Assembly: GCA_041674405.1 (NCBI GenBank)
Contig: JBAYVT010000001.1
Location: forward strand, 181,032-245,031
Length of the DNA stretch: 64,000 bases
Reading direction: 5' to 3'
Source: Patescibacteria group bacterium
GTDB taxonomy: Bacteria; Patescibacteriota; UBA1384; XYA2-FULL-43-10
The translations under genes and the position numbers were made by a program. Below are positions 2,850 to 63,909 of the stretch, in pieces (position 1 is the stretch's first letter; each line of letters opens with the position of its first letter). The notes under the pieces are model-generated. The model had not been told where the DNA came from. It searched no databases and saw only the letters and a program-made list of their open reading frames with translations.

Positions 2850-2862
2850 ATTTTGGCGAATT

Positions 2863-3743: not shown

Positions 3744-4406
3744 ATGTCCAAGGATTACTATAAAATTCTAGGAGTGGACAAGAGGGCTTCCGCCGACGAA
3801 ATCAAAAAAACATATCGGAAGCTTGCTTTGGAATGTCATCCGGATCGAGGCGGAGGAGACAAAGCGGAAGAGAAATTCAAAGAACTGAACGAAGCTTATC
3901 AAGTTCTTTCGGATTCACAGAAACGGGCACAATACGATCAATTTGGCTCAACATTCGCAGGCGGACAGGGCAGCGGTGGATTTGGCGGTTTCGATTTTGG
4001 CGGATTCCAAGGGCAAGATTTCGGTGGATTCGGTCCCGAAGGGGCCCACTTTGGGGGCTTTGGCGGCGGCGGGCTTGGCGATATATTTGATGATTTCTTT
4101 GGTGCTGCTTTTTCATCCGTGTCTGCTGAGATTGAGATTGGCCCCGCGCAAGCTGTTCTCGGTGAAAAAATTTCGATCAATGTTAGTGGTGAAAATATTG
4201 AACTAAATATCCCACCTGGCATTCAGGATGGAACTACTTTTCGGTTTCTTGGCAAGGGTCGCGCATACAACAAGTCGGGTAAGAAAGGCGATCTCAATGT
4301 GATAGTGCACATAAAAATGCCTCAAAGAATCACACCGGAGCAAAAGGAGCTATGGGAGAAGCTTAAGGAAGCCGAATCAAAGAAGAAATCTTGGTGGCAA
4401 CGCTAG
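3744..4406 (+). CDS. J-domain co-chaperone (DnaJ/CbpA-like; J domain plus G/F-rich region, no Cys-rich zinc-finger domain)
   Basis: DYYKILGV...HPD J-domain motif followed by a Gly/Phe-rich stretch. ATG at 3744 preferred over the TTG at 3732 used by the ORF track. Confidence 0.85.
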
Positions 4407-4505
4407 CTGCGCTACGCGCTAGTCTAAAGAGAAAAGATGAAAGTGTAAAGACAATTAATTTGTTTTTTTAAGCTTTTCTCTTTCCACTTTACACTTTCCA
4501 CTAAT

Positions 4506-4871
4506 TTATGCTGCCTCCGGCATTTGATCTTGCGATTCTAGAAATCTTAAATCATCTTCATCTGCGGCCGTGTCTTGACCCAGTGAACGCTCATTTTCAA
4601 TCTTTCTTTGAAGAAAATGCTCGATTTCCCGCCGATCTTTGCCTTCTCGGAGAATTTTAATCATATTCTCCAGCGTTTGGATCTCGCTCTCGTTGATATG
4701 ATACAGGCCGCCCTGTTCTCCATGAAGGGCTCGATCAACTTGCTGTTCACGATCGATTCTTCCCTTTACCCGTTCAATTTCGCTCTCGAGATCCGAGATT
4801 AGCCGGTTACAGATCGACCGCTCCCGATCCACAGTTTCTTCTTCTGGAGCGGCTTCTGTTTCAATCGCCAT
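4506..4871 (-). CDS. hypothetical acidic coiled-coil protein (122 aa)
   Basis: Internal ATG at 4871 is preceded by the strong RBS AAGGAGGG. The longer ORF start would overlap the obg 3' end. Confidence 0.55.
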   Translation of the reverse strand: MAIETEAAPEEETVDRERSICNRLISDLESEIERVKGRIDREQQVDRALHGEQGGLYHINESEIQTLENMIKILREGKDRREIEHFLQRKIENERSLGQDTAADEDDLRFLESQDQMPEAA

Positions 4872-4887: not shown

Positions 4888-6291
4888 TTATAATTTGTCA
4901 ATTTTAGAACTGATTGAAGCAAAATAATCTTTGATATTTTGATAATTTAAGTTTTCTTTGACCTCATTCAGCAACACCCAAACAGGAATTTCGTCGGTTT
5001 CTTTTTCTCCAAGATCCACTTTCTCTGATCTAAAAAGAAACATTTTACAGGTGATTCCTTTCGGGTTCATTTTATTTACATACTCGAAATCGGGCAGATC
5101 AGTTCCATCAGACACTACAACCCCGGTTTCTTCAAATATCTCTCTGATAGCCGCTTTCTTTTCATCTTCTCCAGGCTCTAAGTGGCCTTTTGGAAATGAA
5201 AACTCATTGTTGTGACGCGGCCGCTGGATCATCAGAACATATTTTTTGCCTTGGCGCTCCAACACAACTATTCCGCCTGATTTTAGAGTGTGCCCTGCTG
5301 GATTTTTTACTTTATTTGGATGATTCAGCTCCGAAAGAATAACTTTTATTAATTCTTCTATACCTTTATTAGCTGCGGCAGAAATCGGAATAGCAACCAC
5401 GCTAATTTCTTCAAATTGCCCGATTTTTGACTTGATGTTTTCTGAAGATTCAACATCGGTTTTATTTAATACAACAATTTCATTTTTGCTGCTTAAGTTT
5501 TTTGAAAATTCCTCAAGCTCCTTGCGAATTGTTTTGTAATCACGAATCACATCGTCACTCATCGAATCAATCACATGCACAAGCAAATTGGTGCGCTCGA
5601 TATGTTTTAGGAATCGATCGCCAAGCCCACGTCCAGCCGATGCTCCTTCAATCAAGCCAGGGATGTCGGCGACAATAACATTGCGATCTATACCCTTAAT
5701 AACCCCTAGATTCGGCGTAAGCGTAGTAAAGGGATAGTCGGCAACTTTCGGCCTAGCATTGGAAATAACCGATAAGAGAGTTGACTTACCAGCATTTGGA
5801 AGGCCGATGAGCCCTACATCTGCGATCATTTTAAGTTCCAGGTTTAAACGTTTTGATTCTCCGAATAAGCCCTTTTTTGACCATTTTGGAGCTTGTTTGA
5901 TCGAGGTGGCAAAATGTACATTTCCCCAGCCGCCTTGCCCCCCACTTACTGCGACGTATGAACCGGCATCACCCGCTAGATCAGCTACCAATTTATCATC
6001 TTCAAATATTTGTGTGCCTAGGGGCACATTCAATTTAAGATCATCGCCGTTTTTGCCGTGCATTTTTTTACCCATTCCATTTTGGCCATTTTCCGCACTG
6101 AATTTTCTGATGCGGTTAAAATAAGACAGATCCGATGTGTGTGAATCGGCAGAGATGATGACACTGCCACCATTTCCTCCATCTCCCCCATCGGGCCCAC
6201 CTTTTGGAACATATTTTTCATGGCGAAAAGAGGCAGACCCATCTCCGCCATTGCCGGCTTTCACATAAATTTTCGCTTCATCAAAAAACAT
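4888..6291 (-). CDS. obg: GTPase Obg with a C-terminal Nudix hydrolase domain in place of the usual OCT/TGS tail
   Basis: N-terminus MFFDEAKIYVKAGNGGDG (Obg fold), G1 GLPNAGKST and other G-motifs. The last ~130 aa carry a perfect Nudix box GHLEPGEDEKKAAIREIFEETGV. ATG at 6291 preferred over the GTG at 6324. Confidence 0.9.
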   Translation of the reverse strand: MFFDEAKIYVKAGNGGDGSASFRHEKYVPKGGPDGGDGGNGGSVIISADSHTSDLSYFNRIRKFSAENGQNGMGKKMHGKNGDDLKLNVPLGTQIFEDDKLVADLAGDAGSYVAVSGGQGGWGNVHFATSIKQAPKWSKKGLFGESKRLNLELKMIADVGLIGLPNAGKSTLLSVISNARPKVADYPFTTLTPNLGVIKGIDRNVIVADIPGLIEGASAGRGLGDRFLKHIERTNLLVHVIDSMSDDVIRDYKTIRKELEEFSKNLSSKNEIVVLNKTDVESSENIKSKIGQFEEISVVAIPISAAANKGIEELIKVILSELNHPNKVKNPAGHTLKSGGIVVLERQGKKYVLMIQRPRHNNEFSFPKGHLEPGEDEKKAAIREIFEETGVVVSDGTDLPDFEYVNKMNPKGITCKMFLFRSEKVDLGEKETDEIPVWVLLNEVKENLNYQNIKDYFASISSKIDKL

Positions 6292-6297
6292 GACTTT

Positions 6298-6401
6298 CAC
6301 AGAATGGTTATCACAGAATTTCACAGAATTGATTGCAGCATGGATTCATGAGATTCACAGAAATGATATTTTTCTGTGTCTTTCTGTGTGATTTTTCTGT
6401 G
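6298..6401. repeat. array of seven CACAGAA heptamers (four direct, then three inverted as TTCTGTG) in the obg upstream region
   Basis: Copies read from the sequence at 6298, 6312, 6322, 6356 (forward) and 6372, 6382, 6395 (reverse). Confidence 0.6.
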
Positions 6402-9713: not shown

Positions 9714-9879
9714 TGAAAAATCCCTCTGTTGTAATAAATGAATACACTATCATTTTACCACAAGCAGAATTTGATGCAAAAAATACGGGTAGACCCCTTT
9801 CGTCGTAATTTTCAACGACTCATCAGAACACTTATGTGTTGAGGGGTGGACGAACAGCAAATGTCCGCCCCGGGCAGGC

Positions 9880-10371
9880 TTAGGCCTCCTCCATGACCTG
9901 AGCCAGAGTCAGAAACTCCTTGTCCCGACTAAACGACTCGAATCCCATCGGGACATCATTCTCCCGCCGCAGCTTAAGTACGCCGTGGCGTTCGAGAGCC
10001 ACACCCATGGTGACGGCAAGGTCGCACAAGGCTACGGCATCTTCCCCCTTGCAAACCCCGAAGTCCACCATGAAGCTTCTCGTGACCAGCTCACACAGCG
10101 TGAAGCAGCACTCCGTGCTTGGCTGGCCCCACTCTTCCAGTGTCGGCCTCGGATGTTCTGCCGCCGCCTCCGGCTTTTGCACCTTGTGGCGTGCTGCAAA
10201 ATCATCGAGGATTCCGACAATCTTCTCCCAGTCTGCCACATCTTCCGCACGGGAAGATTCTTTCAGTGGCAGAAGTGAGAGATAGATACTTGCCAGCAGC
10301 CCCTCGAACTCTTCATACCTGAAGTCGGTGTGGGGCATCGTCCCGACATTCAGTTGGGCTTCTTCGCCCAT
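9880..10371 (-). CDS. hypothetical protein encoded in a GC-rich island
   Basis: ATG at 10371 sits 9 nt downstream of an AAGGAG RBS (the ORF-track start at 10392 is a GTG). Local GC is visibly higher than the flanks. No recognisable motif. Confidence 0.5.
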   Translation of the reverse strand: MGEEAQLNVGTMPHTDFRYEEFEGLLASIYLSLLPLKESSRAEDVADWEKIVGILDDFAARHKVQKPEAAAEHPRPTLEEWGQPSTECCFTLCELVTRSFMVDFGVCKGEDAVALCDLAVTMGVALERHGVLKLRRENDVPMGFESFSRDKEFLTLAQVMEEA

Positions 10372-10463
10372 TGGGCACCACTCCTTTATCACTCGAGTTT
10401 CGCACTAGACAATACAAGATTTATCCTTTAATGTCAAGGATCAATCAGTAATTCAGACTAATA

Positions 10464-10490
10464 AAAAAGATCGAGAACTCGATCTTTTTT
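10464..10490 (-). terminator. rho-independent terminator downstream of infB (AAAAAAGATCGAG-aac-TCGATCTTTTTT)
   Basis: Perfect 10-bp stem flanked by A and T runs. It lies 3' of the infB stop on the minus strand. Confidence 0.75.
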
Positions 10491-10515
10491 ATTATTTCCG
10501 AAAAGATATTATTTG

Positions 10516-27805: not shown

Positions 27806-27861
27806 TGTTTATTTGTAGCAATTTCACCGCGGTCGCGGAAGAATTACTACATTTTTCATAA

Positions 27862-30564: not shown

Positions 30565-31285
30565 CTAAAATAAAAGCAGCCAGAAATCCTAAAACGGTAA
30601 TTATTCCGATCGAAAATCCACCCTCCTCATATGCTTCCGGCATCATCGTGTCCGCTAACATGGCGAGAATTGCACCGGCCGCAAACGCTTCGATAATACC
30701 AATGTTGTTCGGATCGATGTCGGTAAGAAATATGTAACTCAATATTGTTATCACTAGAGTTGTGATCGCTACGATCGCCCAGGTGGTGAATATTTTTTTG
30801 TTGGAATAGCCCTCTTTCTTAAGCCCAGTAATGGATGAAATTCCCTCCGGGAAGTTGGATATAACGATCGCCATTGCCATCAGGAAGCCCCTGCCATGCC
30901 CCGCAAACAAAGATATGCCGAGAGCTGCCGATTCGGGTATTCCATCCAGAATTGCCCCCAGAGTGATTGCGCGGCCATTGGTTATTGCACCAGTCTCGAT
31001 CATTTTTCTTCGTTTGTGATTACGTCCTCCGTAAAAATGAAGTAAATAATCCCCAAGAACATATGCCAAGCCACCGATAAGAAAGCCGATGGTTACAGCA
31101 TCAAAACCACCAAAAGAAAAGGCGTCTTCCATTAGCCCAAAGGTGAGGGCGCAAACCAAAACCCCGGCACCAAATGCCATGAAACGAGCTATTACCCGTT
31201 GTGAGAAATTAAAATATATGCCGACAGCTGCCCCACCGACGAGTGCAAGTCCAGAAATTGCTCCATATAAAACTGCATATTCCAT
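30554..31285 (-). CDS. ZIP-family divalent metal transporter (ZupT-like)
   Basis: Multi-TM protein with ISNFPEG and HGRGF metal-binding helix motifs. Confidence 0.75.
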   Translation of the reverse strand: MEYAVLYGAISGLALVGGAAVGIYFNFSQRVIARFMAFGAGVLVCALTFGLMEDAFSFGGFDAVTIGFLIGGLAYVLGDYLLHFYGGRNHKRRKMIETGAITNGRAITLGAILDGIPESAALGISLFAGHGRGFLMAMAIVISNFPEGISSITGLKKEGYSNKKIFTTWAIVAITTLVITILSYIFLTDIDPNNIGIIEAFAAGAILAMLADTMMPEAYEEGGFSIGIITVLGFLAAFILAKF

Positions 31286-31372
31286 AAAAATATTTTATCA
31301 AATTTAGCCATTAAAAAGAAACTCCCGCCCCCGGAAACCGGGGACGGGTGACGAAATTCGCGGGGACTCGGC

Positions 31373-31603
31373 CTAGAGGCCGGCAATCCCATTCGCCATT
31401 GCTGGCGAGAGGATGGTGTTGCCAGAGGATGACGCTTCGACGGAAGTTCCGCCACGCCATCGCTCTCCGGCAATGTGTTGGCCAACCCACATCGCGTGGG
31501 CAGCCTGCTGCTGCGGAGTGGGAGGGGAGCAAACCACGGCTCCCTTCGACCTCTGTCGGCGGAAGTACTCCTCCGCCTCTTCCCAAGCAGGGAAAATCAA
31601 CAT
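31373..31603 (-). CDS. possible small protein (77 aa) in a GC-rich island
   Basis: ATG sits 5 nt after GGAGGTG. The region is open in several frames because of its high GC, so the call is weak. Confidence 0.3.
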   Translation of the reverse strand: MLIFPAWEEAEEYFRRQRSKGAVVCSPPTPQQQAAHAMWVGQHIAGERWRGGTSVEASSSGNTILSPAMANGIAGL

Positions 31604-31832
31604 ATGCCACCTCCAGCGGAAGAGTAGTAACAAAAATACTCTACAATATATATTGTGATTTGTCAATATTAAGGCAACAATATTTTTATTAATAATAAAG
31701 GCACAATAGAACGATAAAACAAAAAGTTATCCACAAAAATTGTAGAACGCAGGGATTAAACTACCACCATCAATCAAAGAATAAATATTCCCTATTGCAT
31801 AAAAATGAAGATATTAAACTGGAACTCGTTCG

Positions 31833-37663: not shown

Positions 37664-37852
37664 ACCTTTCATCGCAACTAATTCCAATAATAGTCTCAAA
37701 TGCTTTAATACGTGCAGTATAAAGCATTTTTAACAATTTGGGGCTAAAAATCAAGAACCCGCCGGGGAGGGCGGGAACTTGGATACTTCTTCGGAGCGTG
37801 GAGCTCCAATTTGAGATTCGTGGAAAGAGGTACCCCGAAAAGCAGGATGGAC

Positions 37853-39097
37853 TTAGCCGGCCTTCAGGACCCTAGGCGGGTCATTGGCGAAGTAGTCGGG
37901 AGCCTCATTGATCAGGCAGCGAATGCCCGCGTAGTACCATGCTCCATATCGGTATAGCGGTTTCTCACTAATGACGACCTGGTCGTCACCCACAAGATCC
38001 GTTATTACTTGCTGAAGCTCTGGCTCCCCTCCACTCATGACCACTCTGCCGTCCGCGGTCTGATAGACGCCCATAGCCAGTGGATGGTGGATTCGTTTGA
38101 TCCGATGGAACTCGATGCCAGCGCGTATGGCCCGACGACGACACTCACGAAGCGTCGAATCAGGGTTGTACTTTGGCGGTTTTCTCTGTCCCTGGAAGCC
38201 AGACCAGATCAAGGGGTCAGCAAGCAGGTGCAAGCCACCTCGACGGTCTTCAATTACGGCGAAGAACCGATCGATGTGGTTGTCGGCGCCATAGCCCATC
38301 TTGCTCGCTTGTCCATCCAGGAAGGTAGCTGATACTTCCGGGAGTTCGAGCACTGCCATTCCCAGATCCTTGAGTGGCTGTATCGGCGGCGGTTTGAGCT
38401 CATAGCGATCTTCTCCCAACGCCTTCAACGTTTCTGGTCCAGGCATTTCGACCTTGTCGAACACAACTGCCAAAGACTGCCTGAAGAGTATCCGGCCGCC
38501 TTCGCCGTAGATACTGTCGACAACGTTGTTCTTTTCCACCCAAGCCGGATCGACGACCCGGCTATGTCGCGGATCGAGCACAGCTTGGAAGCGGTGCCAG
38601 CTCAGGTCCATCATCACCGTGCCATTCGGCAGCATGGTCCACAGGTCCCGAGGGAACCCTTGAACCAAGATGTCAATGTCCGGGAAGTTGATGGTCGGGA
38701 AAGGGCCACTCTTCATCGCATCGAAATACTGCTGGCCCAGAAGCTCCCTAAAGGCTAGCATCACCATGGGAGTCAAACCTGCCGCAGCCAGCATGGAATA
38801 GATCAGGGCCCATTCTTCCGCAGCTTCCTGAGCCATTCCCCGGAGAATCCCCATGAATTCGGGGTCTTTGGCGGGAAGAGCATAGCTGCGGCCCGGGACT
38901 AAACTGTACCGGGAAAACGTTGGAAGCGGGTACGGCGCAAACCGCTCGTCTTGCCCATACGGTCTCGTCTTGTAGACGTTTGATACGGCAAAATGCGGCA
39001 AGCCATAAACGTGAATCACGCAGATGCCCTCCTTTCGGGCTTCGCTTTGGGATAGTACGGCTACATTTGGATTACCACAATTTTTAGAAAATAGCAA
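37853..39097 (-). CDS. hypothetical protein (414 aa) encoded in a GC-rich island
   Basis: Long ORF. GC content is clearly above the flanks. No motif recognised. Confidence 0.55.
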   Translation of the reverse strand: MLFSKNCGNPNVAVLSQSEARKEGICVIHVYGLPHFAVSNVYKTRPYGQDERFAPYPLPTFSRYSLVPGRSYALPAKDPEFMGILRGMAQEAAEEWALIYSMLAAAGLTPMVMLAFRELLGQQYFDAMKSGPFPTINFPDIDILVQGFPRDLWTMLPNGTVMMDLSWHRFQAVLDPRHSRVVDPAWVEKNNVVDSIYGEGGRILFRQSLAVVFDKVEMPGPETLKALGEDRYELKPPPIQPLKDLGMAVLELPEVSATFLDGQASKMGYGADNHIDRFFAVIEDRRGGLHLLADPLIWSGFQGQRKPPKYNPDSTLRECRRRAIRAGIEFHRIKRIHHPLAMGVYQTADGRVVMSGGEPELQQVITDLVGDDQVVISEKPLYRYGAWYYAGIRCLINEAPDYFANDPPRVLKAG

Positions 39098-39609: not shown

Positions 39610-39634
39610 TTTCGTCTACTTGACGCGAATAAAA

Positions 39635-39667
39635 GCAAAAATCCCCCAAAGGGGGATTTTTGCTTTT
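39635..39667 (+). terminator. rho-independent terminator after the RRM gene (GCAAAAATCCCCC-aaag-GGGGGATTTTTGC followed by TTTT)
   Basis: Perfect stem plus a T tract. Confidence 0.8.
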
Positions 39668-39789
39668 ATAATTGATTTTTTACGCCCAGTGCGTTAGTAT
39701 TGCGGTGCTCGCAGCAAGGCAACTTTCCAGTCCGGATCTGGCCGCCCCTCACGAAAATTCAACCGCCTATGGCGGAGGAGGAGCTGACC

Positions 39790-40143
39790 ATGACAAAGAG
39801 CTGGAGAATATTGCTAGAAGGTTTCGAGGCACTCGAGGAAAAAGTCCATCATGCGTTGTTCGAAGTCGCAGCAGCGCAAGAGGACGCAGATGCGGGATGG
39901 GACTCGTGGCTAGAGTGGGAAGAACTCGCGAAGCAGGTCCGGCGCGCAGCGCACGCCCGGGACCTCTCGATAGACGAGTTTGACTCGCTTTGCCGCACGG
40001 CCCGTCGGTACCAGAACAAGAGAGTGCATGACCTCTGCGTCGCACTCGAGATCGAGAGTTTCGCAGAGGAAGACGGCACCATGATCTGGGAGCAGTTTTG
40101 TGCTTTAGTTGGCAAACTCGAGCACCTGGCGCCAAGCCCGTAG
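39790..40143 (+). CDS. hypothetical protein (118 aa) encoded in a GC-rich island
   Basis: ATG is preceded by GGAGGAGG. GC-rich. No motif recognised. Confidence 0.5.
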   Translation: MTKSWRILLEGFEALEEKVHHALFEVAAAQEDADAGWDSWLEWEELAKQVRRAAHARDLSIDEFDSLCRTARRYQNKRVHDLCVALEIESFAEEDGTMIWEQFCALVGKLEHLAPSP

Positions 40144-40212
40144 GGAGCTCCGAGCCTTCAACGAGCGAGTCGGGCGGTCTGATGCATGGACCGCCCACAA
40201 TTTATTTTAGAC

Positions 40213-40980
40213 CTATTTCTTTAAGTTCTCACTCGACATAAACTTTTTGATGTCATTGATCGTAGACATGAATTGGGCAGGAAAAATGATCGTGGAATTT
40301 TTCTCTGTCGAAATTTCAGATAGGACTTGAAGGTTTCGAAGCTGCAGTGCAATTGGGTGTTTATTGATAATATCAGCAGCTTTACCAAGTTTGTCCGCCG
40401 ATTGAAATTCGCCTTCGGCAGCGATAATTTTTGCTCTTTTCTCCCTTTCAGCTTCTGCCTGTTTTGCCATCGCTCTCTGCATCGTATCAGGAAGTTGAAT
40501 ATCTTTGATCTCAACAGTTGTTACAATCACGCCCCAAGCTTCTGTATGGCTATCGATAATTTTTTTGATTTTTTGGTTAATTTTGTCCGTGTCAGAAAGA
40601 ACCTCATCAAGTGAAAATTGGCCCACGATATTTCTCACGGTCGTTTGGGCAATCTGGTTTACCGCCGCATAAACATTTTGGACGGCAACGATCGATTTGG
40701 TTGCATCTACCACATGGTAATAAGCCACGGCTGCCACATCAATCGAAACATTATCGCGCGTGATAATTTTCTGGGATTGAACCGGCATTGTAATTATCTG
40801 TAGAGAAATTTTGTAAAGTCGATCAATAATCGGAATAATCATCCGAATTCCTGGCTCTTTTTCTCCTATCACCCGCCCAAGCCTAAACCAGACTCCCCGT
40901 TCATATTGCTGAACTACCCGCAATGCCGCAGCGATTAATATCACCGCAATCCCGATCACATACCACCATACTATGCTCAT
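40213..40980 (-). CDS. SPFH/band-7 (stomatin/prohibitin-like) membrane protein
   Basis: N-terminal TM helix plus an SPFH core and a coiled-coil tail ([17 protein letters not shown]). Confidence 0.85.
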
Positions 40981-49140: not shown

Positions 49141-49167
49141 AAACACCAATTTGTTGGTGTTTTTATT
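49141..49167 (+). terminator. rho-independent terminator after the permease gene (ACACCAA-ttt-TTGGTGT followed by TTTTATT)
   Basis: Seen in the sequence. Confidence 0.7.
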
Positions 49168-49169
49168 AT

Positions 49170-49286
49170 GGTTCGGGGATAGGGATTTCGGGCATTCGCG
49201 CTGCTCACTTCTAAAAACCCTCGGTTTTTAGTGTTTTCCGCCAGCGGGAGACCAATTGTTCTCCCGACCCCTCTCTCGTCCGAACC
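49170..49286. repeat. structured non-coding element (first copy): begins GGTTCGGGGATAGGGATTTCGG and is closed by the complementary CCGAACC at its far end
   Basis: The 19-nt 5' motif is repeated at 49342. The ends are complementary. No convincing ORF. Confidence 0.3.
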
Positions 49287-49341
49287 CCATATATAACCAC
49301 CCAAAAGAAAAACGACCACCAAAAGGTGATCATTTTTCTTT

Positions 49342-49415
49342 GGTTCGGGGATAGGGATTCGGACCCCAATTCTTTGGACCAAAACCAAATGTCCTGCCAT
49401 TAGACGATCCCCGAA
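49342..49415. repeat. structured non-coding element (second copy): GGTTCGGGGATAGGGATTCGG ... closed by TCCCCGAA
   Basis: Shares the 5' motif with 49170-49191. The ends are complementary. Confidence 0.3.
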
Positions 49416-49584: not shown

Positions 49585-49915
49585 GCTTTATGAAGCATCC
49601 AATAAGCCGGGTTTTGTATAACGATAGCAATCTATCTACGCGTGGAGACCGCAGGTCACCTTCCGAGTCGGAATTGATGTCAGGCGGTCCACTCCACTTG
49701 CACCGAGCTAGGCTTGCCACAGACGCACATTGCTGTACGAACGCGTGAGCTCTTACCTCACGATTTCAACCTTACCGGTCTTGCGACTTAGGCGGTATAT
49801 TTTCTGTTGCGCTGTTCTCAGAGCTTTCACCCTGCTTGTTTTCACAAGCGCTCCACTCTGCGGTGCCCGGACTTTCCTCCCTTGCGGGTAGCTATCTAGA
49901 ATGCTTTTAAAGCAT
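49585..49915 (-). ncRNA. rnpB: RNase P RNA (bacterial type A, compact)
   Basis: On the minus strand: GGAGGAAAGTCCGGGCACC, GGTAAGGTTGAAATCGTGAGGTAAGAGCTCACG and ACAAAACCCGGCTTATTGG. The 5' end GCTTTAAAAGCATTC pairs with the 3' end GGATGCTTCATAAAGC to form P1. Confidence 0.85.
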
Positions 49916-49975
49916 TAATATTGTATCCGAAAATGACCAAAAAGTCAATGTTTAAGGGTTGGAACTCACAAAAAG

Positions 49976-49997
49976 ATTATCTTATATTAAAATATTT
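49976..49997. repeat. 22-bp direct repeat ATTATCTTATATTAAAATATTT, left copy; the right copy is at 51351-51372
   Basis: Exact 22/22 match read from the sequence. The two copies bracket the GC-rich HD-methyltransferase gene. Confidence 0.7.
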
Positions 49998-50038
49998 AAA
50001 TTATAGGATATTGATACAAAATTTTAGTTTTAACCGAA

Positions 50039-50063
50039 GGCGCCAGGCCGCAAGGCCTGGCGC
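50039..50063 (-). terminator. GC-rich hairpin GGCGCCAGGCC-gcaa-GGCCTGGCGC downstream of the HD-methyltransferase gene
   Basis: Perfect 10-11 bp GC stem just 3' of the stop on the minus strand. Confidence 0.6.
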
Positions 50064-50073
50064 TCGGTGATAC

Positions 50074-51180
50074 TTAGTTGGTTCGGCCGAAAATCAGCCG
50101 GAAGGCTTCCGGGTCAACGCACGGATAGCCAGAAAAGTCGAAGTCGTGGTCTTCTGCGATCAGCGAGAAGCCTGGGAGCATCGCTTCGATCTGTCGACTT
50201 GCGACCTCGATGCTGTCTGCACCATAGGTCGGCGTGTAGCTCTCGATGACCTCGAGTCGCCCATCGCTTAAAGACAATACTCGGAGGAGTTCCTGTGGGC
50301 TGAGCGCATCGGGGCAGCGTAGTGCTACGTTCGCCATCACGATATCGCCAGCATCATCCGGAATCGGCAGTGCGTCCGCCGTCCCGGGCAAGATAATCTC
50401 TGGGGCGGAGTTGCGCAGCTTGGCCGTCTCGACAGAAAGCACAGCCGCGACTTTGCGATCTGCCTGTGAGGGTTCGACGCCGATGATCAGCTCAAGCGGA
50501 GTATGTTTCCGAAAGAGGCTGATTGGCAGTCTGCCGGGCCCAATCTCTATAAGGACCTTTGGCTCCTCGCCGCGCTCCGCACAAAGCACACCGTAGTTGC
50601 GAATGATGTTTCTCGCTACATTGGTGTGCCATTCGCTGGCATGGTTCGTGCCCCAGTACTGGGGAGTGAGCCTGATCTCCGGCCAGAGATAGGCCACCAT
50701 TCCATGGAGATTCGGCCAGAAGAAGTCCCAGCCACCCTCAAAGCCGAACTCGGCCGCGAGTTTGTCGAAGTCCTCGCGAAAATCCGAGTACGCGCCAGCC
50801 ATCCGTGATAGGTCGGCAGCACGCAAGATTTTCGCCTCGACGGTGACCGGCATGACGCCAGCATTGGTAGGTTTGATCGCATCGATCACTGCGGCGATCA
50901 TGTGCTCCAGGTAGCCAAGTTTCCGCATCTCCTCGGCAGCCACCTTGGCACTCAGCTCCTCAGGAGTCGAGCACCCGAATTCTCGCGGATCCTTGCCAAA
51001 CAACGCATCATGGAAAAGCGCTGCCCAGACAAGGACCTCAATCGAGACGTGGATGCCGCAATGTCGGCATCGTTCTGCAAGCATGAAGGCAGTTGCGCAG
51101 ACCCCCTGAGCATGCCTCCAATTATGGTACGGCCGCATGGTGTAATACGGCCAAGCCAATTTCTCGATGAATCCCAGCAT
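50074..51180 (-). CDS. fusion protein: N-terminal HD-domain phosphohydrolase plus C-terminal class I SAM-methyltransferase-like domain; GC-rich island gene
   Basis: YHNWRHAQGV...ALFHDALF (HD). VLIEIGPG motif I. ATG at 51180 is preceded by AAGGGGGA (the track start at 51201 is a TTG). Confidence 0.6.
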   Translation of the reverse strand: MLGFIEKLAWPYYTMRPYHNWRHAQGVCATAFMLAERCRHCGIHVSIEVLVWAALFHDALFGKDPREFGCSTPEELSAKVAAEEMRKLGYLEHMIAAVIDAIKPTNAGVMPVTVEAKILRAADLSRMAGAYSDFREDFDKLAAEFGFEGGWDFFWPNLHGMVAYLWPEIRLTPQYWGTNHASEWHTNVARNIIRNYGVLCAERGEEPKVLIEIGPGRLPISLFRKHTPLELIIGVEPSQADRKVAAVLSVETAKLRNSAPEIILPGTADALPIPDDAGDIVMANVALRCPDALSPQELLRVLSLSDGRLEVIESYTPTYGADSIEVASRQIEAMLPGFSLIAEDHDFDFSGYPCVDPEAFRLIFGRTN

Positions 51181-51292
51181 CTTGGTCCCCCTTGTGTACA
51201 AGCCTGAATTTCGAGCAGTGCTAGATTAACACAAAAAACATGTTCCGTAAATTATCCAAACATTAGTACATCCATCCAAATCTTATTATTCC

Positions 51293-51339
51293 AAACGTAA
51301 CAATTTCTCCGCGACCGCGGAGAAATTGTTACGTTTTTA
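51293..51339 (+). terminator. long hairpin (AACGTAACAATTTCTCCGCG-acc-GCGGAGAAATTGTTACGTT followed by TTTTT) with no upstream plus-strand gene
   Basis: About 19-bp stem plus a T tract. It sits between the island gene start and the right direct repeat. Confidence 0.5.
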
Positions 51340-51350
51340 TTTCTAAAACA

Positions 51351-51372
51351 AATTATCTTATATTAAAATATT
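51351..51372. repeat. 22-bp direct repeat ATTATCTTATATTAAAATATTT, right copy
   Basis: Exact match to 49976-49997. Confidence 0.7.
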
Positions 51373-51399
51373 TTTATCAAATAAGTACAAAAAAGTGAT

Positions 51400-51825
51400 T
51401 TATTTAATCATTTTCTTTAGATAAATATCTACTGGCTCCTTCGTGGTTTGGGTAAGCTTTTTGGGAAGTTTATCCGGTGGGAACCATCTCATATCCTCGT
51501 GCTTATTCGGTTCCATATTTTTTGGTTCCTGGCCGTCTCGGATTTTTGCCAGGTGGTGGATCGCCACCCAATGCTGACCTTCAATTATATGGTCCGTGTA
51601 TCCTAGACACTCTAAGATATCAATATCGACTCCAATTTCCTCACGAATCTCTCGCTTTAGCATCTCTTCAACTGTTTCACCAAATTCAACCGTGCCGCCG
51701 GGCTTCGTCCAAAAACCGGCATCGTTATTGCTTTTTGACGTTCGTTTTAATAATAGAATTTCGTTGTTGTCATTGACAATTAAGGCACCGCCACCAACTC
51801 CGATGAAGTCTTTCCCTGGTTTTAT
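51400..51825 (-). CDS. Nudix hydrolase; start codon unresolved (no in-frame ATG/GTG/TTG upstream of the Nudix fold; the frame is open to 51843)
   Basis: Nudix box G...E...REIREEIGV. The full fold needs the upstream strands IKPGKDFIGVGGGALIVND. The first in-frame ATG (51663) would truncate the fold. Confidence 0.55.
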   Translation of the reverse strand: MKPGKDFIGVGGGALIVNDNNEILLLKRTSKSNNDAGFWTKPGGTVEFGETVEEMLKREIREEIGVDIDILECLGYTDHIIEGQHWVAIHHLAKIRDGQEPKNMEPNKHEDMRWFPPDKLPKKLTQTTKEPVDIYLKKMIK

Positions 51826-51827
51826 TT

Positions 51828-53552
51828 TTACTCCTTGACTTCTTTAATAACCGCAGATAAATCTTCTTGCCCTTTGTCGCCTTCGCCATATTTACGGACA
51901 GCGACTTTTTCAGCCTCGATTTCTTTGTCGCCGACAATAAGCATATATGGGATTTTTTGCATCTCGGCTTCGCGAATTTTTTTGCCGATCGATTCAGTAC
52001 GATCATCAACCTTAACTCGAATTCCGGCTTCATTGAGCTCCTTTTCGATTTTTGCGGCGTAGTCCAAATGTTTATCGGAGATTGGCAACACAATAGCCTG
52101 GACAGGAGCGAGCCATGTCGGAAATGCGCCGGCAACATTCTCGATATATATACCAAGAAAACGCTCGATTGCCCCATAAATCACGCGATGGATCATTACA
52201 GGACGGACTTTTTCACCTTTTTCATCAATATAGGTCAAGTCGAATGTTTCCGGATTGGCAAAGTCAAGCTGTATTGTGCCGCACTGCCATGTGCGACCGA
52301 TAGCATCCTTTAGATGAAAATCAAATTTCGGGCCATAGAATGCTCCATCACCTTCATTAACTTTATGTTCGATTTTGTTTTCAGCAAGAATTTCCTTCAT
52401 TGTCGATTCTGCCTTTTCCCAAACCTCATCCGAACCGACTGACTTTTCCGGCCTTGTTGAAAGCTCAATATGATCAACTTTCATGCCAAATTTCTCATAC
52501 ATTTCAAAACATAAATCAAATACCTTTTTGATTTCTTCCTTTACCTGATCAGGCCGGCAATAGATGTGGGCATCATCTTGTGTAAACTGGCGAAGGCGCA
52601 TAAGCCCATGGACTTCGCCCGAACCTTCGTAGCGGTGGACCAAGCCAATCTCCCCCATCTTTACCGGCAGATCTCGGTATGAATGAACCTTAGTCCTGTA
52701 AATCAGCATACCGCCGATGCAGTTCATTGGCTTTACAGCATAGGAATAATCTTTTTCATCGGGAGTTCTGGCTAAATACATTCTTTCGGCATAGTTTTTC
52801 ATGTGTCCGCTCTGCTCCCAGACTTCTTTTAGCATCATGATTGGGGTATTTACCTCTTCGTATCTCTCACGGCGATGAACCTGCCGCCAATACTCGAGCA
52901 TTTTTTGAAATACAATCCAGCCATTATCATGCCAAAAAACAAAGTTTGGTCCTTCCTTGTGAAACGAAAAGAGATCCAGCTCCGTGGCAAGTTTGCGGTG
53001 ATCGCGCTTCTCAGCTTCCAGTATGATTTCTTCATACTTTTTAAGCTCAGACTCGTTTTCAAACGCAAGAGCATATATCCTCTGTAGCATTTTGTTTTTC
53101 TCACTACCTCGCCAATAAGCACCGGCAATTTTATCAAGCTTAAAACCAACATTTTTGAGATCAGAGGTTGTATCAACGTGAGGACCAGCACAAAGATCGA
53201 CAAATTCTCCTGTTTTGTAAAGTGAAACTTTGTCATTGCCACTACTCTTCAAATCTTTAATCAACTCCAATTTGTAATTTTGTTTGTCAAATTTTTCAAT
53301 TGCTTGGCTTATTTCCACTTCTGATTTTTCAAAGGCAAGATTCTTTTCAATAATCTCGCGCATTTTTTTCTCAAGTTTTGGCAAATCCTCCGGCACCAAA
53401 GCTCGGGGCAAGTCAAAATCATAATAAAAGCCATTTTCAATCGCCGGACCAATACCAAGTTTTGCATCAGGGAACATCTCAAGTACTGCCATCGCCAGTA
53501 CATGGCTCAGCGAATGCCTCATGGTTTCAAGTTCAAATTTTTTTTCAGCCAT
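51828..53552 (-). CDS. thrS: threonyl-tRNA synthetase (lacks the N-terminal TGS domain)
   Basis: Class II aaRS motifs, N2 editing-domain remnants (HSLSHVLA) and a C-terminal anticodon-binding domain. 574 aa. Confidence 0.95.
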   Translation of the reverse strand: MAEKKFELETMRHSLSHVLAMAVLEMFPDAKLGIGPAIENGFYYDFDLPRALVPEDLPKLEKKMREIIEKNLAFEKSEVEISQAIEKFDKQNYKLELIKDLKSSGNDKVSLYKTGEFVDLCAGPHVDTTSDLKNVGFKLDKIAGAYWRGSEKNKMLQRIYALAFENESELKKYEEIILEAEKRDHRKLATELDLFSFHKEGPNFVFWHDNGWIVFQKMLEYWRQVHRRERYEEVNTPIMMLKEVWEQSGHMKNYAERMYLARTPDEKDYSYAVKPMNCIGGMLIYRTKVHSYRDLPVKMGEIGLVHRYEGSGEVHGLMRLRQFTQDDAHIYCRPDQVKEEIKKVFDLCFEMYEKFGMKVDHIELSTRPEKSVGSDEVWEKAESTMKEILAENKIEHKVNEGDGAFYGPKFDFHLKDAIGRTWQCGTIQLDFANPETFDLTYIDEKGEKVRPVMIHRVIYGAIERFLGIYIENVAGAFPTWLAPVQAIVLPISDKHLDYAAKIEKELNEAGIRVKVDDRTESIGKKIREAEMQKIPYMLIVGDKEIEAEKVAVRKYGEGDKGQEDLSAVIKEVKE

Positions 53553-53610: not shown

Positions 53611-54069
53611 TTATTTTATTAGACCCAATCTTTCAAATAATTCAATCGATGGTGGGGTTAGTTTAATTTTGTCTAGTTCCGAGATATCAGCCCATTGAAA
53701 TATTTCAAGATCGTCGCCAATTTTTACCAAAATCTCACTCGCGTCTTCACTTGCCGATACCTTAAAAACATTGAAAGACATTGTGCACAAGACTTTTTCT
53801 CCGGTTGTTCGCAACGTTTTTTCCGACTCGCCAATTCCTTTGTCATCAATCAATTCAATGCTGTAATTCTTAATATTGATTCCTGTTTCCTCTGAAATTT
53901 CTCTCCGAAGTGCCGTCTCAAAATTTTCATCTTCATCCACGCCTCCTCCCGGAAGATGCCAAAAGTCCACGTAAACTCCGCCTCCGTGAGCGTGTTTTTT
54001 ACCAAGAAATATTTTTTTATCTTTTGAAATAATCATTGCGGAGACTATTTCACGATGGATTGTGCGCAT
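53611..54069 (-). CDS. Nudix hydrolase
   Basis: Nudix box GGGVDEDENFETALRREISEETG. Confidence 0.8.
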   Translation of the reverse strand: MRTIHREIVSAMIISKDKKIFLGKKHAHGGGVYVDFWHLPGGGVDEDENFETALRREISEETGINIKNYSIELIDDKGIGESEKTLRTTGEKVLCTMSFNVFKVSASEDASEILVKIGDDLEIFQWADISELDKIKLTPPSIELFERLGLIK

Positions 54070-59790: not shown

Positions 59791-60663
59791 TTACTTTTTG
59801 GCTTTTTTCTTGACCGCAATTTTGGCAGCTTGTTTCGGTGCGACTTTCGGTACAGTAATAGTCAAAATTCCGTTGTCCATCTCAGCTTCGGCCTTTTCTG
59901 ATTTAACTTCGGATGGCAGTGTGAAGCTTCTAGTAAATGATCCAGTATACATTTCTTTGTGATAAAATCCCTCGTCTTTTTCTTCCTTTTCCTCTTTTTT
60001 CTCACCAGAAATTGTCATTATGTTATCGGCAACTTCAACAGTGACATCTTCCTCGGCAACTCCCGGAAGTTCGGCTTTGACTATGACAGCGTCTTTGGTT
60101 TCTTTTACATTGATTTTCGGCATTCCGCCAGCCTTGGCTGGGGTGACAACGCTTTCCTCAAAAAGACGATCCATTGCATCACGGAGAGTAACCATTTCTC
60201 CGAAAGGGCGCCACGGCCCAATTTCTCTTGGCATAGAATTCTCCTTTACCCCGAGCCTGTCGAGGGGTTTACCCACCTCATCGAGCCTGTCGAGGGGTTT
60301 ACCCACCTCATCGAGCCTGTCGAGGGGTTTACCCACCTCATCGAGCCTGCCGAGGAGTCTCTCGTCCTCAATTTGTCCGAGTTGCCCAGCAGTTGCGGGG
60401 TTATGATTAATAATTTTTATTGGTGAATTATTTTCAAACATTTGATTAATTTCTTTTTCAAAATCAAATATTTCCTCAAATGCAGAATTGAAAAAATTGC
60501 ACATCGATACAACAAGGGGTAGTGATGGCATATATTTCCCCTGCTCAAGAGCGATCACAGACTGCCGGGAAATACCCAGAGCTTCGGCCAGTTCCTCTTG
60601 TGAAAGATCGTGTTGGCGACGAAGTTCGCGCAATCTGTTTTGAATGTTTGGTTCTTCTTTCAT
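59791..60663 (-). CDS. fusion protein: N-terminal XRE/Cro-type HTH DNA-binding domain plus repeat linker plus C-terminal small heat-shock protein (alpha-crystallin/Hsp20) domain
   Basis: HTH: LRELRRQHDLSQEELAEALGISRQSVIALEQGK. Linker: LDEVGKPLDR x3.5. ACD: INVKETKDAVIVKAELPGV...GILTITVPK. Confidence 0.85.
   Translation of the reverse strand: MKEEPNIQNRLRELRRQHDLSQEELAEALGISRQSVIALEQGKYMPSLPLVVSMCNFFNSAFEEIFDFEKEINQMFENNSPIKIINHNPATAGQLGQIEDERLLGRLDEVGKPLDRLDEVGKPLDRLDEVGKPLDRLGVKENSMPREIGPWRPFGEMVTLRDAMDRLFEESVVTPAKAGGMPKINVKETKDAVIVKAELPGVAEEDVTVEVADNIMTISGEKKEEKEEKDEGFYHKEMYTGSFTRSFTLPSEVKSEKAEAEMDNGILTITVPKVAPKQAAKIAVKKKAKK
60251..60356. repeat. perfect in-frame 30-bp tandem repeat (3.5 copies; TCGAGCCTGTCGAGGGGTTTACCCACCTCA) inside the HTH-Hsp20 gene
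   Basis: Copies at 60251, 60281, 60311 and a partial one at 60341. Copies 2 and 3 are identical. Confidence 0.9.
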
Positions 60664-62324: not shown

Positions 62325-62929
62325 TGGCAGTATTAATCAATTTTAAAATTTGTGACAATGCGGAAGAATGTGCCGGCATAGAAACCTGCCCGAGTGGCGC
62401 ACTTTCTTGGGATGATGAAAATAAGACGATCAAGATTGATAATGAGAAATGTACTAGCTGCGGCGCTTGCGAGAAAGCTTGTGGTGTTGAGGCAATCAAG
62501 GTTGCGAGAACTGATGCTGAATATGCGCAGATCACGAAAGAATTCGACGAGGATCCGCGTACCGTCAACGATCTCATGGTCGACCGCTATGGCGCACAAA
62601 TAATTTTGCCATTTAATTTAATAGATGATGAAAGATTCGAAATTGACATTCTAAAAAGTGAAAAACTTGCGGTAGTTGAATTATTTAAAAACGACACGAT
62701 CGAATGCATGATCAAGTCGATTCCAATCAAAGAGTTATTAGCCGGTTATGATTACAAATACCGCAAACTCGAAGTCAAAAACGAAGAAATTATGAAAAAG
62801 TATGATATTTCGCAACTTCCGGCACTGCTCTTTTTCAGAAATGGCAAACTAATTGGCAAGGTTGAAGAATATTTCACCACCGACCAAAAATCAGAAATTA
62901 TCGCAAAAATTAAAGAAATTATGAACTAA
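62324..62929 (+). CDS. hypothetical protein: N-terminal Cys-rich ferredoxin-like module plus C-terminal thioredoxin-like domain lacking CxxC
   Basis: CDNAEECAGIETCPSG and CTSCGACEKAC cysteine clusters. C-terminus resembles the Trx fold (LPALLFFRNGKLIGKV). Confidence 0.45.
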   Translation: MAVLINFKICDNAEECAGIETCPSGALSWDDENKTIKIDNEKCTSCGACEKACGVEAIKVARTDAEYAQITKEFDEDPRTVNDLMVDRYGAQIILPFNLIDDERFEIDILKSEKLAVVELFKNDTIECMIKSIPIKELLAGYDYKYRKLEVKNEEIMKKYDISQLPALLFFRNGKLIGKVEEYFTTDQKSEIIAKIKEIMN

Positions 62930-63909
62930 TGGCTAAAAATATCAAAAAAGTGAACAACGTGTCATTGATAGTTTTTTATGACCCCAAAGGCAAAATTATG
63001 CTTCAGGATAGAAGGGGGCATAGCAAGGTCGGAGAGGAATGGGGATTTTTCGGCGGACATATTGAAGAGGGCGAAACTCCCGAACAAACCCTAATCCGAG
63101 AAATTCAGGAAGAACTGGATATAGCCATTTCTGACTATAAATATATTGGAGAAGCAAATACACTAATCAACAATGTGGCGGTCAATCGCCACGTTTACAT
63201 TGCTCCTATCGGCGAAAAAGAACCAGAAATTAATCTGAAAGAAGGTCATGGTTGTAAATTTTTCACTATAAATAGCGCGAAAAATCTTAAAATGGTTCCC
63301 GGAGACGAAAAGGCAGTGGAATTAGTCGGTGAATCTTTGGAAAAATTAATGCCTGACTTATTAGAAAAATCTATTGAGTTTGTTGATAAATCGTTTGGCA
63401 AGAAATCGCCACATTTCGAGCGGGCGCTGTATTGGGTCAAAATTCTTAAACCCGACGCGGATGAAGCTTTACAAATCGCCGCATACTGTCACGATATCGA
63501 TCGATCAACTTGGATGAATTCGAAAGATCGCCCTGCTATCAGCAAGAAGCTGATGCTTCAAGATCTCGAAGCGATCCGAGAGCACGAGGAACATGGCGCA
63601 GAAATGATGTACGATTTCTTGGTCGCAAACGGAGCCGATGAATCTCTGGCAGAAAAAGTTCGCCACCTGATTTCTCGTCATGAAGAAGGCGACGATGACG
63701 AACAAAATGTTTTGAAAGATGCGGACTCTATAAGCTATTTTGAAACGAACGCGGAAAGACACATCGCAGAACTGGGCACATTCACATTTCACGAACTCAA
63801 ATCAAAAACCGACTACATGTTCAATCGCATTACCTCTCCCGAAGCCAAGAAACTTGCCGAGCCGAATTACAAGTCTGCAATTGAAAAATTAGAGAAAGCT
63901 GCCAAATAA
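62929..63909 (+). CDS. fusion protein: N-terminal Nudix hydrolase plus C-terminal HD-domain phosphohydrolase
   Basis: Nudix box GGHIEEGETPEQTLIREIQEELDI. HD motif AAYCHDIDRS...HEEHGAEMM. Confidence 0.8.
   Translation: MAKNIKKVNNVSLIVFYDPKGKIMLQDRRGHSKVGEEWGFFGGHIEEGETPEQTLIREIQEELDIAISDYKYIGEANTLINNVAVNRHVYIAPIGEKEPEINLKEGHGCKFFTINSAKNLKMVPGDEKAVELVGESLEKLMPDLLEKSIEFVDKSFGKKSPHFERALYWVKILKPDADEALQIAAYCHDIDRSTWMNSKDRPAISKKLMLQDLEAIREHEEHGAEMMYDFLVANGADESLAEKVRHLISRHEEGDDDEQNVLKDADSISYFETNAERHIAELGTFTFHELKSKTDYMFNRITSPEAKKLAEPNYKSAIEKLEKAAK

Follow-up and report, generated by a model that had tools for sequence, protein, structure and literature searches.

The window analysed here is a 64-kb stretch of a Patescibacteria (CPR) chromosome with a mean GC content of 41.8%. 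Within it, island 5 lies between a NUDIX hydrolase gene (51400..51825, minus strand) and rnpB, the gene for a class A RNase P RNA (49588..49907, minus strand; Rfam RNaseP_bact_a, 149.7 bits), and is bounded by two copies of a direct repeat. The stop codon of the NUDIX gene is 26 nt from the right repeat, and a promoter-like site for rnpB, TTGACT-17-TACAAT (49920..49948, minus strand), separates rnpB from the left one. The neighbors of the insert are ThrRS, NUDIX, rnpB, tRNA-Gln and ABC transporter genes, with no phage genes among them.

Genes converge near 49.1-49.3 kb, and the 3' end of the tRNA-Gln gene is duplicated (49161-49187 and 49333-49359) at a distance of 0.6 kb from the insert. This duplicated 3' end is a classic att-like scar, indicating that site-specific integration has occurred in this genome. 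GC skew tracks gene strand throughout the window, and is therefore uninformative with respect to the terminus.

Composition of the insert and its single gene

The segment between the repeats is 1,354 bp long (49998-51351) and contains a single gene, which encodes a 368 aa fusion of an HD domain to a methyltransferase fold (50074..51180, minus strand). Island 5 has a GC content of 57-58%, and the GC3 of its gene is 0.67, compared to 0.35-0.41 for host genes. The foreign single-gene insertion proposed in an earlier note on this DNA was therefore borne out: the GC-rich gene is of foreign origin and was inserted between the NUDIX gene and the promoter of the RNase P RNA.

The gene carries its own expression signals, all on the minus strand. 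A promoter block (51214..51252), consisting of a -35 element TTTACG, an extended -10 element TGTGTTAATCT and a conserved AGCACTGCT, was recognized by alignment with L003 and L095, in which it corresponds to ATTGACAAT...TTGTGATAATCTAACACTGCT. A ribosome-binding site, AAGGGGGA (51186..51193), was read from the sequence 5 nt 5' of the ATG, and a GC-rich hairpin (50033..50068; -30.2 kcal/mol) that is homologous in the window, L095, L003 and L096 follows the gene. This hairpin is the cassette's own transcription terminator and is conserved in homologous cassettes, with 2 of its 12 pairs kept by compensatory changes. Homology between cassettes of different genomes extends from the -35 element to just past the terminator. 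Outside of these limits lie 2 AT-rich inner flanks: 35 nt from the terminator to the left repeat (49998..50032, minus strand), which are without homology to other cassettes, and 40 nt from an AT-rich palindrome to the cassette promoter (51253..51292, minus strand), for which no homology was found.

The N-terminal domain of the encoded protein matched Pfam HD with 27.1 bits against a cut-off of 22. The metal-binding motif H...HD...D is present, and H19, H23, H57, D58 and D123 are invariant among 50 relatives. A profile of the protein matched phosphodiesterases (E = 2e-8) and the methyltransferase 2yqz (3.5e-7) in the PDB, and Methyltransf_11 was detected in 9 of the 50 relatives. An AlphaFold2 model built from 5 sequences was unusable (pLDDT 48.8), and the model obtained with a 50-sequence input (pLDDT 95.9) was used instead; Foldseek matched it to many methyltransferases with a probability of 1.00. 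The C-terminal methyltransferase domain carries the motifs EIGPGRL and IGVEP, but the glycine-rich motif I is not invariant in the wider family, so catalytic activity is not assured. Taken together, profile and model comparisons agree with the fusion that the earlier note had read from the sequence, and show an N-terminal HD/cyclic-nucleotide-phosphodiesterase-like domain followed by a C-terminal class I SAM-methyltransferase fold. The protein has more than 1,000 metagenomic relatives, none of which has a solved structure, and its family counts at least 76 strong members. Searches of IMG/VR, INPHARED and PLSDB gave no matches, those of PADLOC and NCBIfam gave nothing, and PHROGs returned a weak phosphohydrolase match only.

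The direct repeat and the AT-rich palindrome

The window contains two exact copies of the 22-mer ATTATCTTATATTAAAATATTT, one at 49976-49997 and the other at 51352-51373, and no third site was found within the 64 kb at up to 3 mismatches. It can be extended to a 28-nt repeat (left, 49970..49997; right, 51346..51373) in which 26/28 positions match (93% identity). The perfect 22-bp direct repeats reported earlier are therefore real and somewhat longer than described; the left copy had been placed correctly, and the right copy (given as 51351-51372) was one base off. None of 100 shuffles contained two matches to the 22-mer, and in a longest-common-substring test the flanks of island 5 shared 22 nt, compared to a shuffle maximum of 13. 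The boundaries of the repeat are sharp on the NUDIX-facing side, and the match between the copies is 22/22. Inspection of the sequence revealed neither convincing dyad symmetry nor dif-like arms. On the minus strand, the right copy together with its flank (51352-51380) reads as a promoter-like TTGATA-17-GATAAT.

A scan of JGI metagenome contigs for the exact 22-mer returned four unrelated contigs (26-36% GC), which are chance matches, and a scan of viral contigs returned none. Neither set of contigs yielded a related element carrying the 22-mer. The occurrence of the repeat on both sides of island 5 is far beyond chance, and the 22-mer is not the common or widespread motif that the earlier note had allowed it might turn out to be.

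Just inside of the right repeat lies the AT-rich palindrome, GTARYAATTTCNCCSCG, which has a GC core, is perfect over 21/21 pairs and is followed on the plus strand by TTTTTATTT (51293..51336). It folds with -30.9 kcal/mol (z = -9.1). The hairpin and T tract had been recognized previously, although the stem is 20-21 bp rather than 19, and the T tract is present on the plus strand only. The palindrome recurs in the window at 27813-27852, just behind a host gene on the minus strand and away from any island; this copy has no comparable flanking repeat. A related copy is found in L095 (1325-1353). It belongs to a lineage-typical palindrome family. The tidy order of repeat, hairpin, ORF, hairpin and repeat, earlier taken as the architecture of the element, is accordingly a coincidental symmetry, one hairpin being the terminator and the other a member of this family. 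A circular permutation, in which the terminator-repeat-palindrome of the window would be colinear with the terminator-spacer-palindrome of L095, was considered and rejected, since the palindrome alone is similar and the spacer alignment is no better than chance (p = 0.61).

Origin of the insertion

No recombinase Pfam domain was found among the ORFs of the 64-kb window or inside the insert, which fits the earlier suggestion that the integrase is gone or elsewhere. Searches for an empty site, a circular junction and an insert-free strain found none. A scan of GTDB species genomes with ThrRS gave a best match of 62% identity without rnpB synteny, a search with the NUDIX protein returned the same organism followed by matches of at most 65% identity, and exact-protein look-ups led to the same strain or to contigs that end short of the locus (L090, L093, L094). 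The data sets SRR22315508 and SRR22315504 hold a related strain, seen as L094 in SRR22315508, and a related cassette. The nearest relatives are ~62-65% identical in the flanking proteins, with no rnpB synteny.

The window holds four further GC-rich islands of the form promoter-ORF-terminator, and GC-rich genes with expression signals of their own make up ~7% of the 64 kb. These genes are either orphans or have only a handful of known relatives; the island-3 protein has homologs but had no viral match. Flanking direct repeats above chance were found neither around these four islands nor around the HD cassettes of L003 and L004, indicating that the repeat is a property of one insertion event rather than of the cassette family, and that the usual acquisition of cassettes in these genomes may leave none. 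A search for an attachment motif common to the flanks of all of the GC islands yielded low-complexity AT matches only, and the 22-mer was not found beside homologous cassettes.

The ends of the insert lack terminal inverted repeats. Target duplications made by transposases usually measure 2-15 bp, while the identity blocks of att cores usually measure 15-60 bp. The lack of terminal inverted repeats together with a 22-bp duplication therefore counts in favor of att-like recombination over a transposase. A DDE transposon or MITE was rejected on these same features.

The overall best explanation, to which we give roughly an even chance of being correct, is an insertion that left the 22-28 bp repeat as its scar through Campbell-type recombination, with a recombinase supplied in trans and a flank of CPR type. 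Under this explanation, 1,354 bp of foreign DNA would have entered recently into the spacer between the NUDIX stop codon and the rnpB promoter of a Patescibacteria chromosome. Its core is a self-contained, moron-like cassette in which the GC-rich gene is preceded by a sigma-70-type promoter and a strong ribosome-binding site and followed by a GC-rich terminator hairpin. This core is flanked by ~150 nt of AT-rich, CPR-type DNA, including the lineage-typical palindrome, that would have arrived with it. The nature of that flank suggests that the immediate donor was another Patescibacteria replicon and not a GC-rich organism. The direct repeat, 22 bp long or 28 bp when extended, would be the scar of the insertion, most likely generated when a circular form integrated in the manner of Campbell via a 22-28 bp sequence common to element and chromosome. 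The site lies in a promoter-like AT-rich stretch upstream of the RNA gene and not within it, so that rnpB is only a neighbor. The recombinase may be encoded elsewhere or may since have been lost, such that the element would resemble a cis-mobilizable element. The repeat, the foreign composition, the boundaries of the cassette, the domains of its gene, the absence of a recombinase from the window and the palindrome family are observed, and it is the circular intermediate, the recombination in trans, the recency and the CPR donor that we infer. Patescibacteria are reported to exchange genes often (PMC12455944).

The alternative that survives best, although we consider it unlikely, is a target-site duplication, in which a fragment was joined into a break with a 22-nt stagger, fill-in duplicated the 22 bp, and the element never carried the 22-mer. 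An integrase- or casposase-like enzyme could have been responsible, as could repair of a staggered break or a fork-template switch. Such an origin would account for the sharp NUDIX-side boundaries and the perfect match, for the absence of the 22-mer beside all homologous cassettes examined, and for the other islands being without repeats, as is expected if the length of the duplication varies with the break. However, the insert has no terminal inverted repeats, the window contains no candidate enzyme, and we know of no bacterial transposase that makes a 22-bp duplication. Moreover, illegitimate joins show microhomology or deletions more commonly than long duplications.

We also regard it as rather improbable that island 5 is one fresh, scar-bearing example of GC-rich single-gene cassettes that circulate among AT-rich Patescibacteria and settle beside host hairpins by an integrase-free or trans-acting route with a ~22-bp target duplication. 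In such a pool, every cassette would consist of an ORF that is rare or orphan, with a promoter and a strong ribosome-binding site before it and a GC terminator behind it.

It is quite unlikely that the palindrome and the right repeat are native sequences downstream of the NUDIX gene, that the cassette landed after this host hairpin, and that the repeat is older or unrelated, for example because it flanks an older palindromic-element insertion or represents a duplicated promoter/operator segment. Were the palindrome a native terminator-like element of the NUDIX gene, the logic by which everything between the repeats is insert would need revision. Favoring this possibility, the copy at 27813-27852 also lies just downstream of a minus-strand host gene without an island, islands 1 and 4 sit immediately behind AT-rich hairpins, those of infB and an RRM gene, and the right repeat copy is promoter-like on the minus strand. 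In contrast, it calls for two events where one is enough, and the 27813-27852 copy has no comparable flanking repeat. In addition, a 22/22 match in neutral AT-rich spacer suggests that something happened here recently, and nothing at the locus looks recent except the acquisition of the GC-rich gene.

A module that depends on Xer, as IMEX elements and pdif modules do, and in which the 28-nt repeat would be a dif-like 11-6-11 site at which a host XerC/D-type recombinase inserted the cassette, is very unlikely. The extended repeat is exactly 28 nt, the element is without a recombinase of its own, and the gene convergence noted above would suit such a module. Nevertheless, only ~13 of the 28 positions match canonical dif (from which the dif site of CPR may differ), the inner arms show no clear ATAA-N6-TTAT dyad, GC skew follows gene strand and gives no sign of a terminus, and no Xer gene lies within the 64-kb window.

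The earlier note had viewed the cassette as an integrase-type island that used rnpB as its stable-RNA attachment site, a reading that we find highly improbable. The RNase P RNA gene is real and the cassette is close to it, with direct repeats present, but the left repeat begins 68 nt from the rnpB 5' end as the 22-mer (62 nt as the 28-nt version), and not 60 bp as had been reported. Att cores of the tRNA/tmRNA type usually include the 3' portion of the gene, which is rebuilt upon integration. The repeat, by contrast, lies upstream of the 5' end of the RNA and beyond its promoter, without overlap, and an integrase is absent; given this position, rnpB was not the target.

Finally, there is a negligible chance that the locus is an assembly chimera with a GC-rich fragment of another organism joined at a shared 22-mer: although the source is a metagenome and composition changes abruptly at steps, both repeat copies are identical in three assemblies made by different methods (the window, ENA contig L001 and Logan contig L002) with the same sequence across both junctions, L001 differs from the window in tandem-repeat copy number elsewhere and is hence a separate assembly, the HD, NUDIX and ThrRS genes are consecutive in the NCBI annotation of a 250,826-bp contig, and both inner flanks are of an AT-rich, CPR-like kind. 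In addition, the final assembly k-mers were longer than 22 bp. Records of the MAG include the NCBI contig that encodes MFA7243907-MFA7243909 and ENA ERZ27247358 k141_1464549.

Relation to known elements and significance

Phage morons each combine a gene with an independent promoter and terminator, and deviate in GC content (PMC3594210). The island 5 cassette resembles them in having its own promoter and its own terminator around one ORF, in its composition (GC 0.58, GC3 0.67 vs host GC3 0.35-0.41), in its location within an intergenic gap, in the lack of a characterized function for its product, and in that its homologs move as the same promoter-to-terminator unit. It differs in residing in the chromosome among housekeeping genes (ThrRS, rnpB, ABC transporter) rather than in a prophage, and in having no phage or viral homolog in the viral databases searched; direct repeats at the flanks, furthermore, are no defining feature of morons.

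CIMEs are integrated elements in which attL and attR persist after loss of the genes for integration (PMC5704250). Island 5 is similarly bounded by direct repeats, which would be the putative att sites, and holds cargo only, with no recombinase inside. In contrast to CIMEs, it has no known cognate integrase or parent ICE/IME, and its site is not located at a gene's 3' end. Its size of 1.35 kb is also far below that of the CIMEs described.

Like an integron cassette, island 5 is a unit of one gene, and a palindrome able to form a hairpin lies close to one of its ends. Arrays of such units exist in relative L003, but their orientation alternates in a way that differs from integrons. Island 5 also departs from integron cassettes, which are promoterless and expressed from Pc, in having its own conserved promoter, with IntI absent from the window, and in its flanking repeat of 22 bp compared to a 7-bp core. 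Unlike attC, its palindrome is perfect (21/21 pairs), without bulges or extrahelical bases; the palindrome's ACGTAAC and GTTACGT are each one mismatch away from the core boxes RYYYAAC/GTTRRRY.

As in islands at tRNA/tmRNA genes, the direct repeats adjoin a stable RNA gene, but here the repeat is outside and upstream of that gene and there is no integrase. Island 5 likewise shares with IMEX and the pdif modules of Acinetobacter a small, integrase-less module with sites of ~28 bp, although its repeat shows little resemblance to canonical dif and at most a weak dyad, and GC skew gave no evidence of where the terminus is located.

In summary, island 5 is a clean but fairly ordinary insertion scar and does not represent an element targeted to RNase P. 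The genomes of Patescibacteria are tiny, and these bacteria are thought to rely on exchanging genes, but little is known of the routes by which individual genes are acquired. The locus provides an insertion resolved to the base pair, with a mobile unit that is defined from promoter to terminator and boundaries that are confirmed by homologous cassettes elsewhere. As the scar is intact, the corresponding junctions can be predicted: GGTTGGAACTCACAAAAAGATTATCTTATATTAAAATATTTTTATCAAATAAGTAC for the empty site and CGTTTTTATTTCTAAAACAAATTATCTTATATTAAAATATTTAAATTATAGGATATTGATAC for the circle or tandem form. If the circulating pool of cassettes considered above proved true, it would be the chromosomal, CPR-specific equivalent of phage morons and would move in a way of its own. 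If the repeats are a recombination site used in trans, few of the cis-mobilizable elements described would be as small as island 5; if they are not such a site, the locus would be a well-preserved case of ordinary horizontal acquisition.

The direct repeat and the gene it encloses

The 64-kb window contains two exact copies of the 22-mer ATTATCTTATATTAAAATATTT, one at 49976-49997 (left repeat, on the rnpB side) and one at 51352-51373 (right repeat, on the NUDIX side), with no further copy at ≤3 mismatches. The earlier note had described such a pair flanking a GC-rich gene (island 5); its position for the first copy was correct, while that for the second was one base too low. The exact match at both ends exceeds shuffle expectation: two 22-mer matches were obtained in 0 of 100 dinucleotide shuffles, and the longest substring common to the flanks of island 5 is 22 nt, compared to a shuffle maximum of 13. 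Grown leftward to 28 nt, the repeats are identical at 26 of 28 positions.

The enclosed ORF (50074-51180, minus strand, ribosome-binding site AAGGGGGA) has a GC content of 0.58 and a GC3 of 0.67, compared to a GC3 of 0.35-0.41 for five host genes. Its product had been read as an HD plus methyltransferase fusion. The N-terminal domain is HD (Pfam HD), with the H...HD...D residues invariant across 50 relatives, and the family profile matches cyclic-nucleotide phosphodiesterases (E = 2e-8) as well as, over residues 208-349, SAM methyltransferases (2yqz, 3.5e-7; 1xxl, 2.8e-5). Pfam Methyltransf_11 is matched in 9 of the 50 relatives. Likewise, the C-terminal half of an AlphaFold2 model built from the 50-sequence alignment (pLDDT 95.9) resembles many class I methyltransferases (Foldseek probability 1.00). 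Taken together, these results indicate that the fusion reading is correct. A word-indexed search returned only five homologs of this protein and an exhaustive profile search 1,175, including 76 at E ≤ 1e-30; those looked up are all unnamed metagenomic proteins.

The mobile unit and the two hairpins

Homologs of the HD gene were viewable in genomic context on 4 contigs (L003, L004, L095 and L096). On the first three, the HD gene likewise stands out from an AT-rich contig as a GC-rich island (GC3 0.58-0.71). The L096 copy is ameliorated (GC3 0.44, nearly host-like) and adjoins the same downstream host gene as the L004 cassette, consistent with longer residence; in contrast, the window copy looks fresh. 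The window protein is 48% identical to the L096 homolog (P0004) and 35% identical to that of L004 (P0005). When the flanks of these cassettes are aligned, homology starts at the -35 element (ATTGACAAT...TTGTGATAATCTAACACTGCT) and stops just past the GC terminator hairpin, in which 2 of 12 pairs are kept via compensatory changes. Based on these limits and paired changes, the conserved unit comprises promoter, ribosome-binding site, gene and terminator. Such a promoter-to-terminator cassette conforms to what has been defined as a phage moron (PMC3594210), having its own promoter, ribosome-binding site, single gene and terminator, but it resides in a chromosome and no viral relative of it was found. 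On L003, three GC-rich cassettes lie side by side (2185-4830), alternate in orientation and each carry their own promoter and GC terminator; the HD cassette is the central one, and the two non-HD proteins are unrelated to the window island proteins.

Folding and ORF reading bear out the arrangement of a GC hairpin (50033-50068, -30.2 kcal/mol), the minus-strand ORF, and a perfect palindrome (51293-51336, 20-21 bp stem, -30.9 kcal/mol, z = -9) after which the plus strand reads TTTTTATTT. The earlier note had further seen in repeat-hairpin-ORF-hairpin-repeat a tidy element layout. This symmetry is coincidental, since the GC hairpin is the terminator of the cassette itself, and the AT palindrome is a palindromic element typical of the lineage. 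The latter reading draws on further copies. A related imperfect copy (27813-27852), far from any GC island, occupies the 56 nt that separate two host genes of the PGA_cap and Sua5 (Sua5_yciO_yrdC) families, both on the minus strand, and a third, at 1325-1353 of L095, follows the HD cassette at a distance of 62 nt. The family consensus is GTARYAATTTCNCCSCG, a loop, then the complement of GTARYAATTTCNCCSCG. The two window copies both carry their T tract on the opposite strand from the adjacent genes, so these elements may not be simple terminators.

The chromosomal site and the proposed route of insertion

The window comes from a Patescibacteria/CPR chromosome and carries gyrB, gyrA, infB, dnaK, obg, ThrRS, rnpB and tRNAs; NCBI lists its proteins under "Patescibacteria group bacterium". 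The neighbouring rnpB is real, a full-length class A RNase P RNA (49588-49907, minus strand, 149.7 bits). A consensus-like promoter (TTGACT-17-TACAAT, 49920-49948) separates it from the left repeat. The right repeat and its flank read TTGATA-17-GATAAT on the minus strand. As reconstructed, the pre-insertion spacer would have comprised the NUDIX stop, 26 nt, the 22-mer and the rnpB promoter, with the insertion point within an upstream promoter-like stretch. The NUDIX frame (51400-51825, minus strand) has no ATG, GTG or TTG start and opens 5 nt downstream of AAGGAG, at an ATA codon (51823-51825) overlapping the stop codon of ThrRS; the NCBI protein (MFA7243908.1) has M there, and other gene callers truncate the product to 87 aa. 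NUDIX genes are unusually frequent in the window (also 53611-54069, an Obg-NUDIX fusion near 4888-6324, and 62929-63909, a host gene encoding a NUDIX + HD (DUF4202) fusion). Beyond rnpB, the last 19-25 nt of tRNA-Gln (49341-49414, minus strand), CCA included, recur 172 nt downstream (49161-49187 and 49333-49359), the two copies being separated by only ~150 nt of DNA rich in hairpins. They look like the classic attL/attR scar of a former tRNA-targeted integrative element, now almost wholly deleted.

The ends of the island 5 insert lack terminal inverted repeats, and no ORF of the 64-kb window encodes a recombinase or transposase domain, which fits the earlier proposal of an integrase "gone or elsewhere". 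A 22-bp duplication is beyond the usual transposase range and typical of an att-core identity block. Elements keeping attL and attR after integrase loss are known as CIMEs (PMC5704250). The inner flanks of the insert are AT-rich and carry the CPR-type palindrome, so that the donor was probably another CPR replicon; frequent exchange among Patescibacteria has been reported (PMC12455944). On these grounds we favor integration of a circular form, which would have recombined at a shared 22-28 bp site using a recombinase supplied in trans or since lost, and give this statement as a whole an even chance. Counting against an att site intrinsic to the cassette, the 22-mer was not found adjoining any other cassette, and flanking repeats are absent around the L003 and L004 HD cassettes and the four other GC-rich single-gene islands of the window (islands 1-4: 9771-10414, 31268-31669, 37711-39088 and 39673-40242; GC3 0.60-0.67). 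A strain without the insert was not found among relatives, the nearest of which are ~62-65% identical in flanking proteins and lack synteny; contigs of a related strain end before reaching the locus.

Target duplication at a 22-nt staggered break is the leading alternative, albeit an unlikely one. We give still less weight to the view that the palindrome is native and that the repeat has nothing to do with the cassette. A Xer/dif-type module is improbable, and integration targeted to rnpB slightly more so: the left repeat lies 68 nt upstream of the RNase P RNA 5' end, beyond the promoter, and, unlike tRNA-/tmRNA-type attachment sites, does not overlap the gene. An assembly artefact is the least credible, as both repeat copies are present in all three assemblies (the window, ENA contig L001 and Logan contig L002), and a chimera is very unlikely. 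L001 has zero mismatches to the window over the compared span around the locus, and L002 (SRR6484325) is 100% identical over 49747-53441. The window and L001 are separate assemblies, since they differ in a 30-nt tandem repeat (60252-60355, inside ORF 59791-60663), of which the window has 3.5 copies and L001 two fewer; this 60-nt difference reflects either variation in copy number between strains or a collapsed assembly.

Taken together, the earlier interpretation holds for a foreign HD-methyltransferase insert with repeats, and fails for the rnpB target and the hairpin symmetry. At this locus, a CPR genome carries a moron-like foreign gene within a well-preserved insertion scar.

Other GC-rich cassettes of the window

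Proteins of islands 1-4 have no family match in Pfam (gene tables), PHROGs, PADLOC or NCBIfam, and for that of island 3 a set of 5.8 billion proteins yielded only 9 homologs. A strong ribosome-binding site is present at all four islands, a TTGACA-like or TTGCTA-like promoter at three (none was identified at island 4), and a GC hairpin terminator is evident at islands 1-3. Islands 1 and 4 start ~20 nt past long, perfect AT-rich hairpins (10459-10494 and 39629-39669), which are located behind the host gene infB and an RRM-domain gene. The order matches that of NUDIX, palindrome and HD cassette, and it suggests a preference of cassettes for sites immediately downstream of host hairpins. More interesting than the single scar is this wider pattern, in which self-expressed, GC-rich cassettes without known function lie next to host hairpins.
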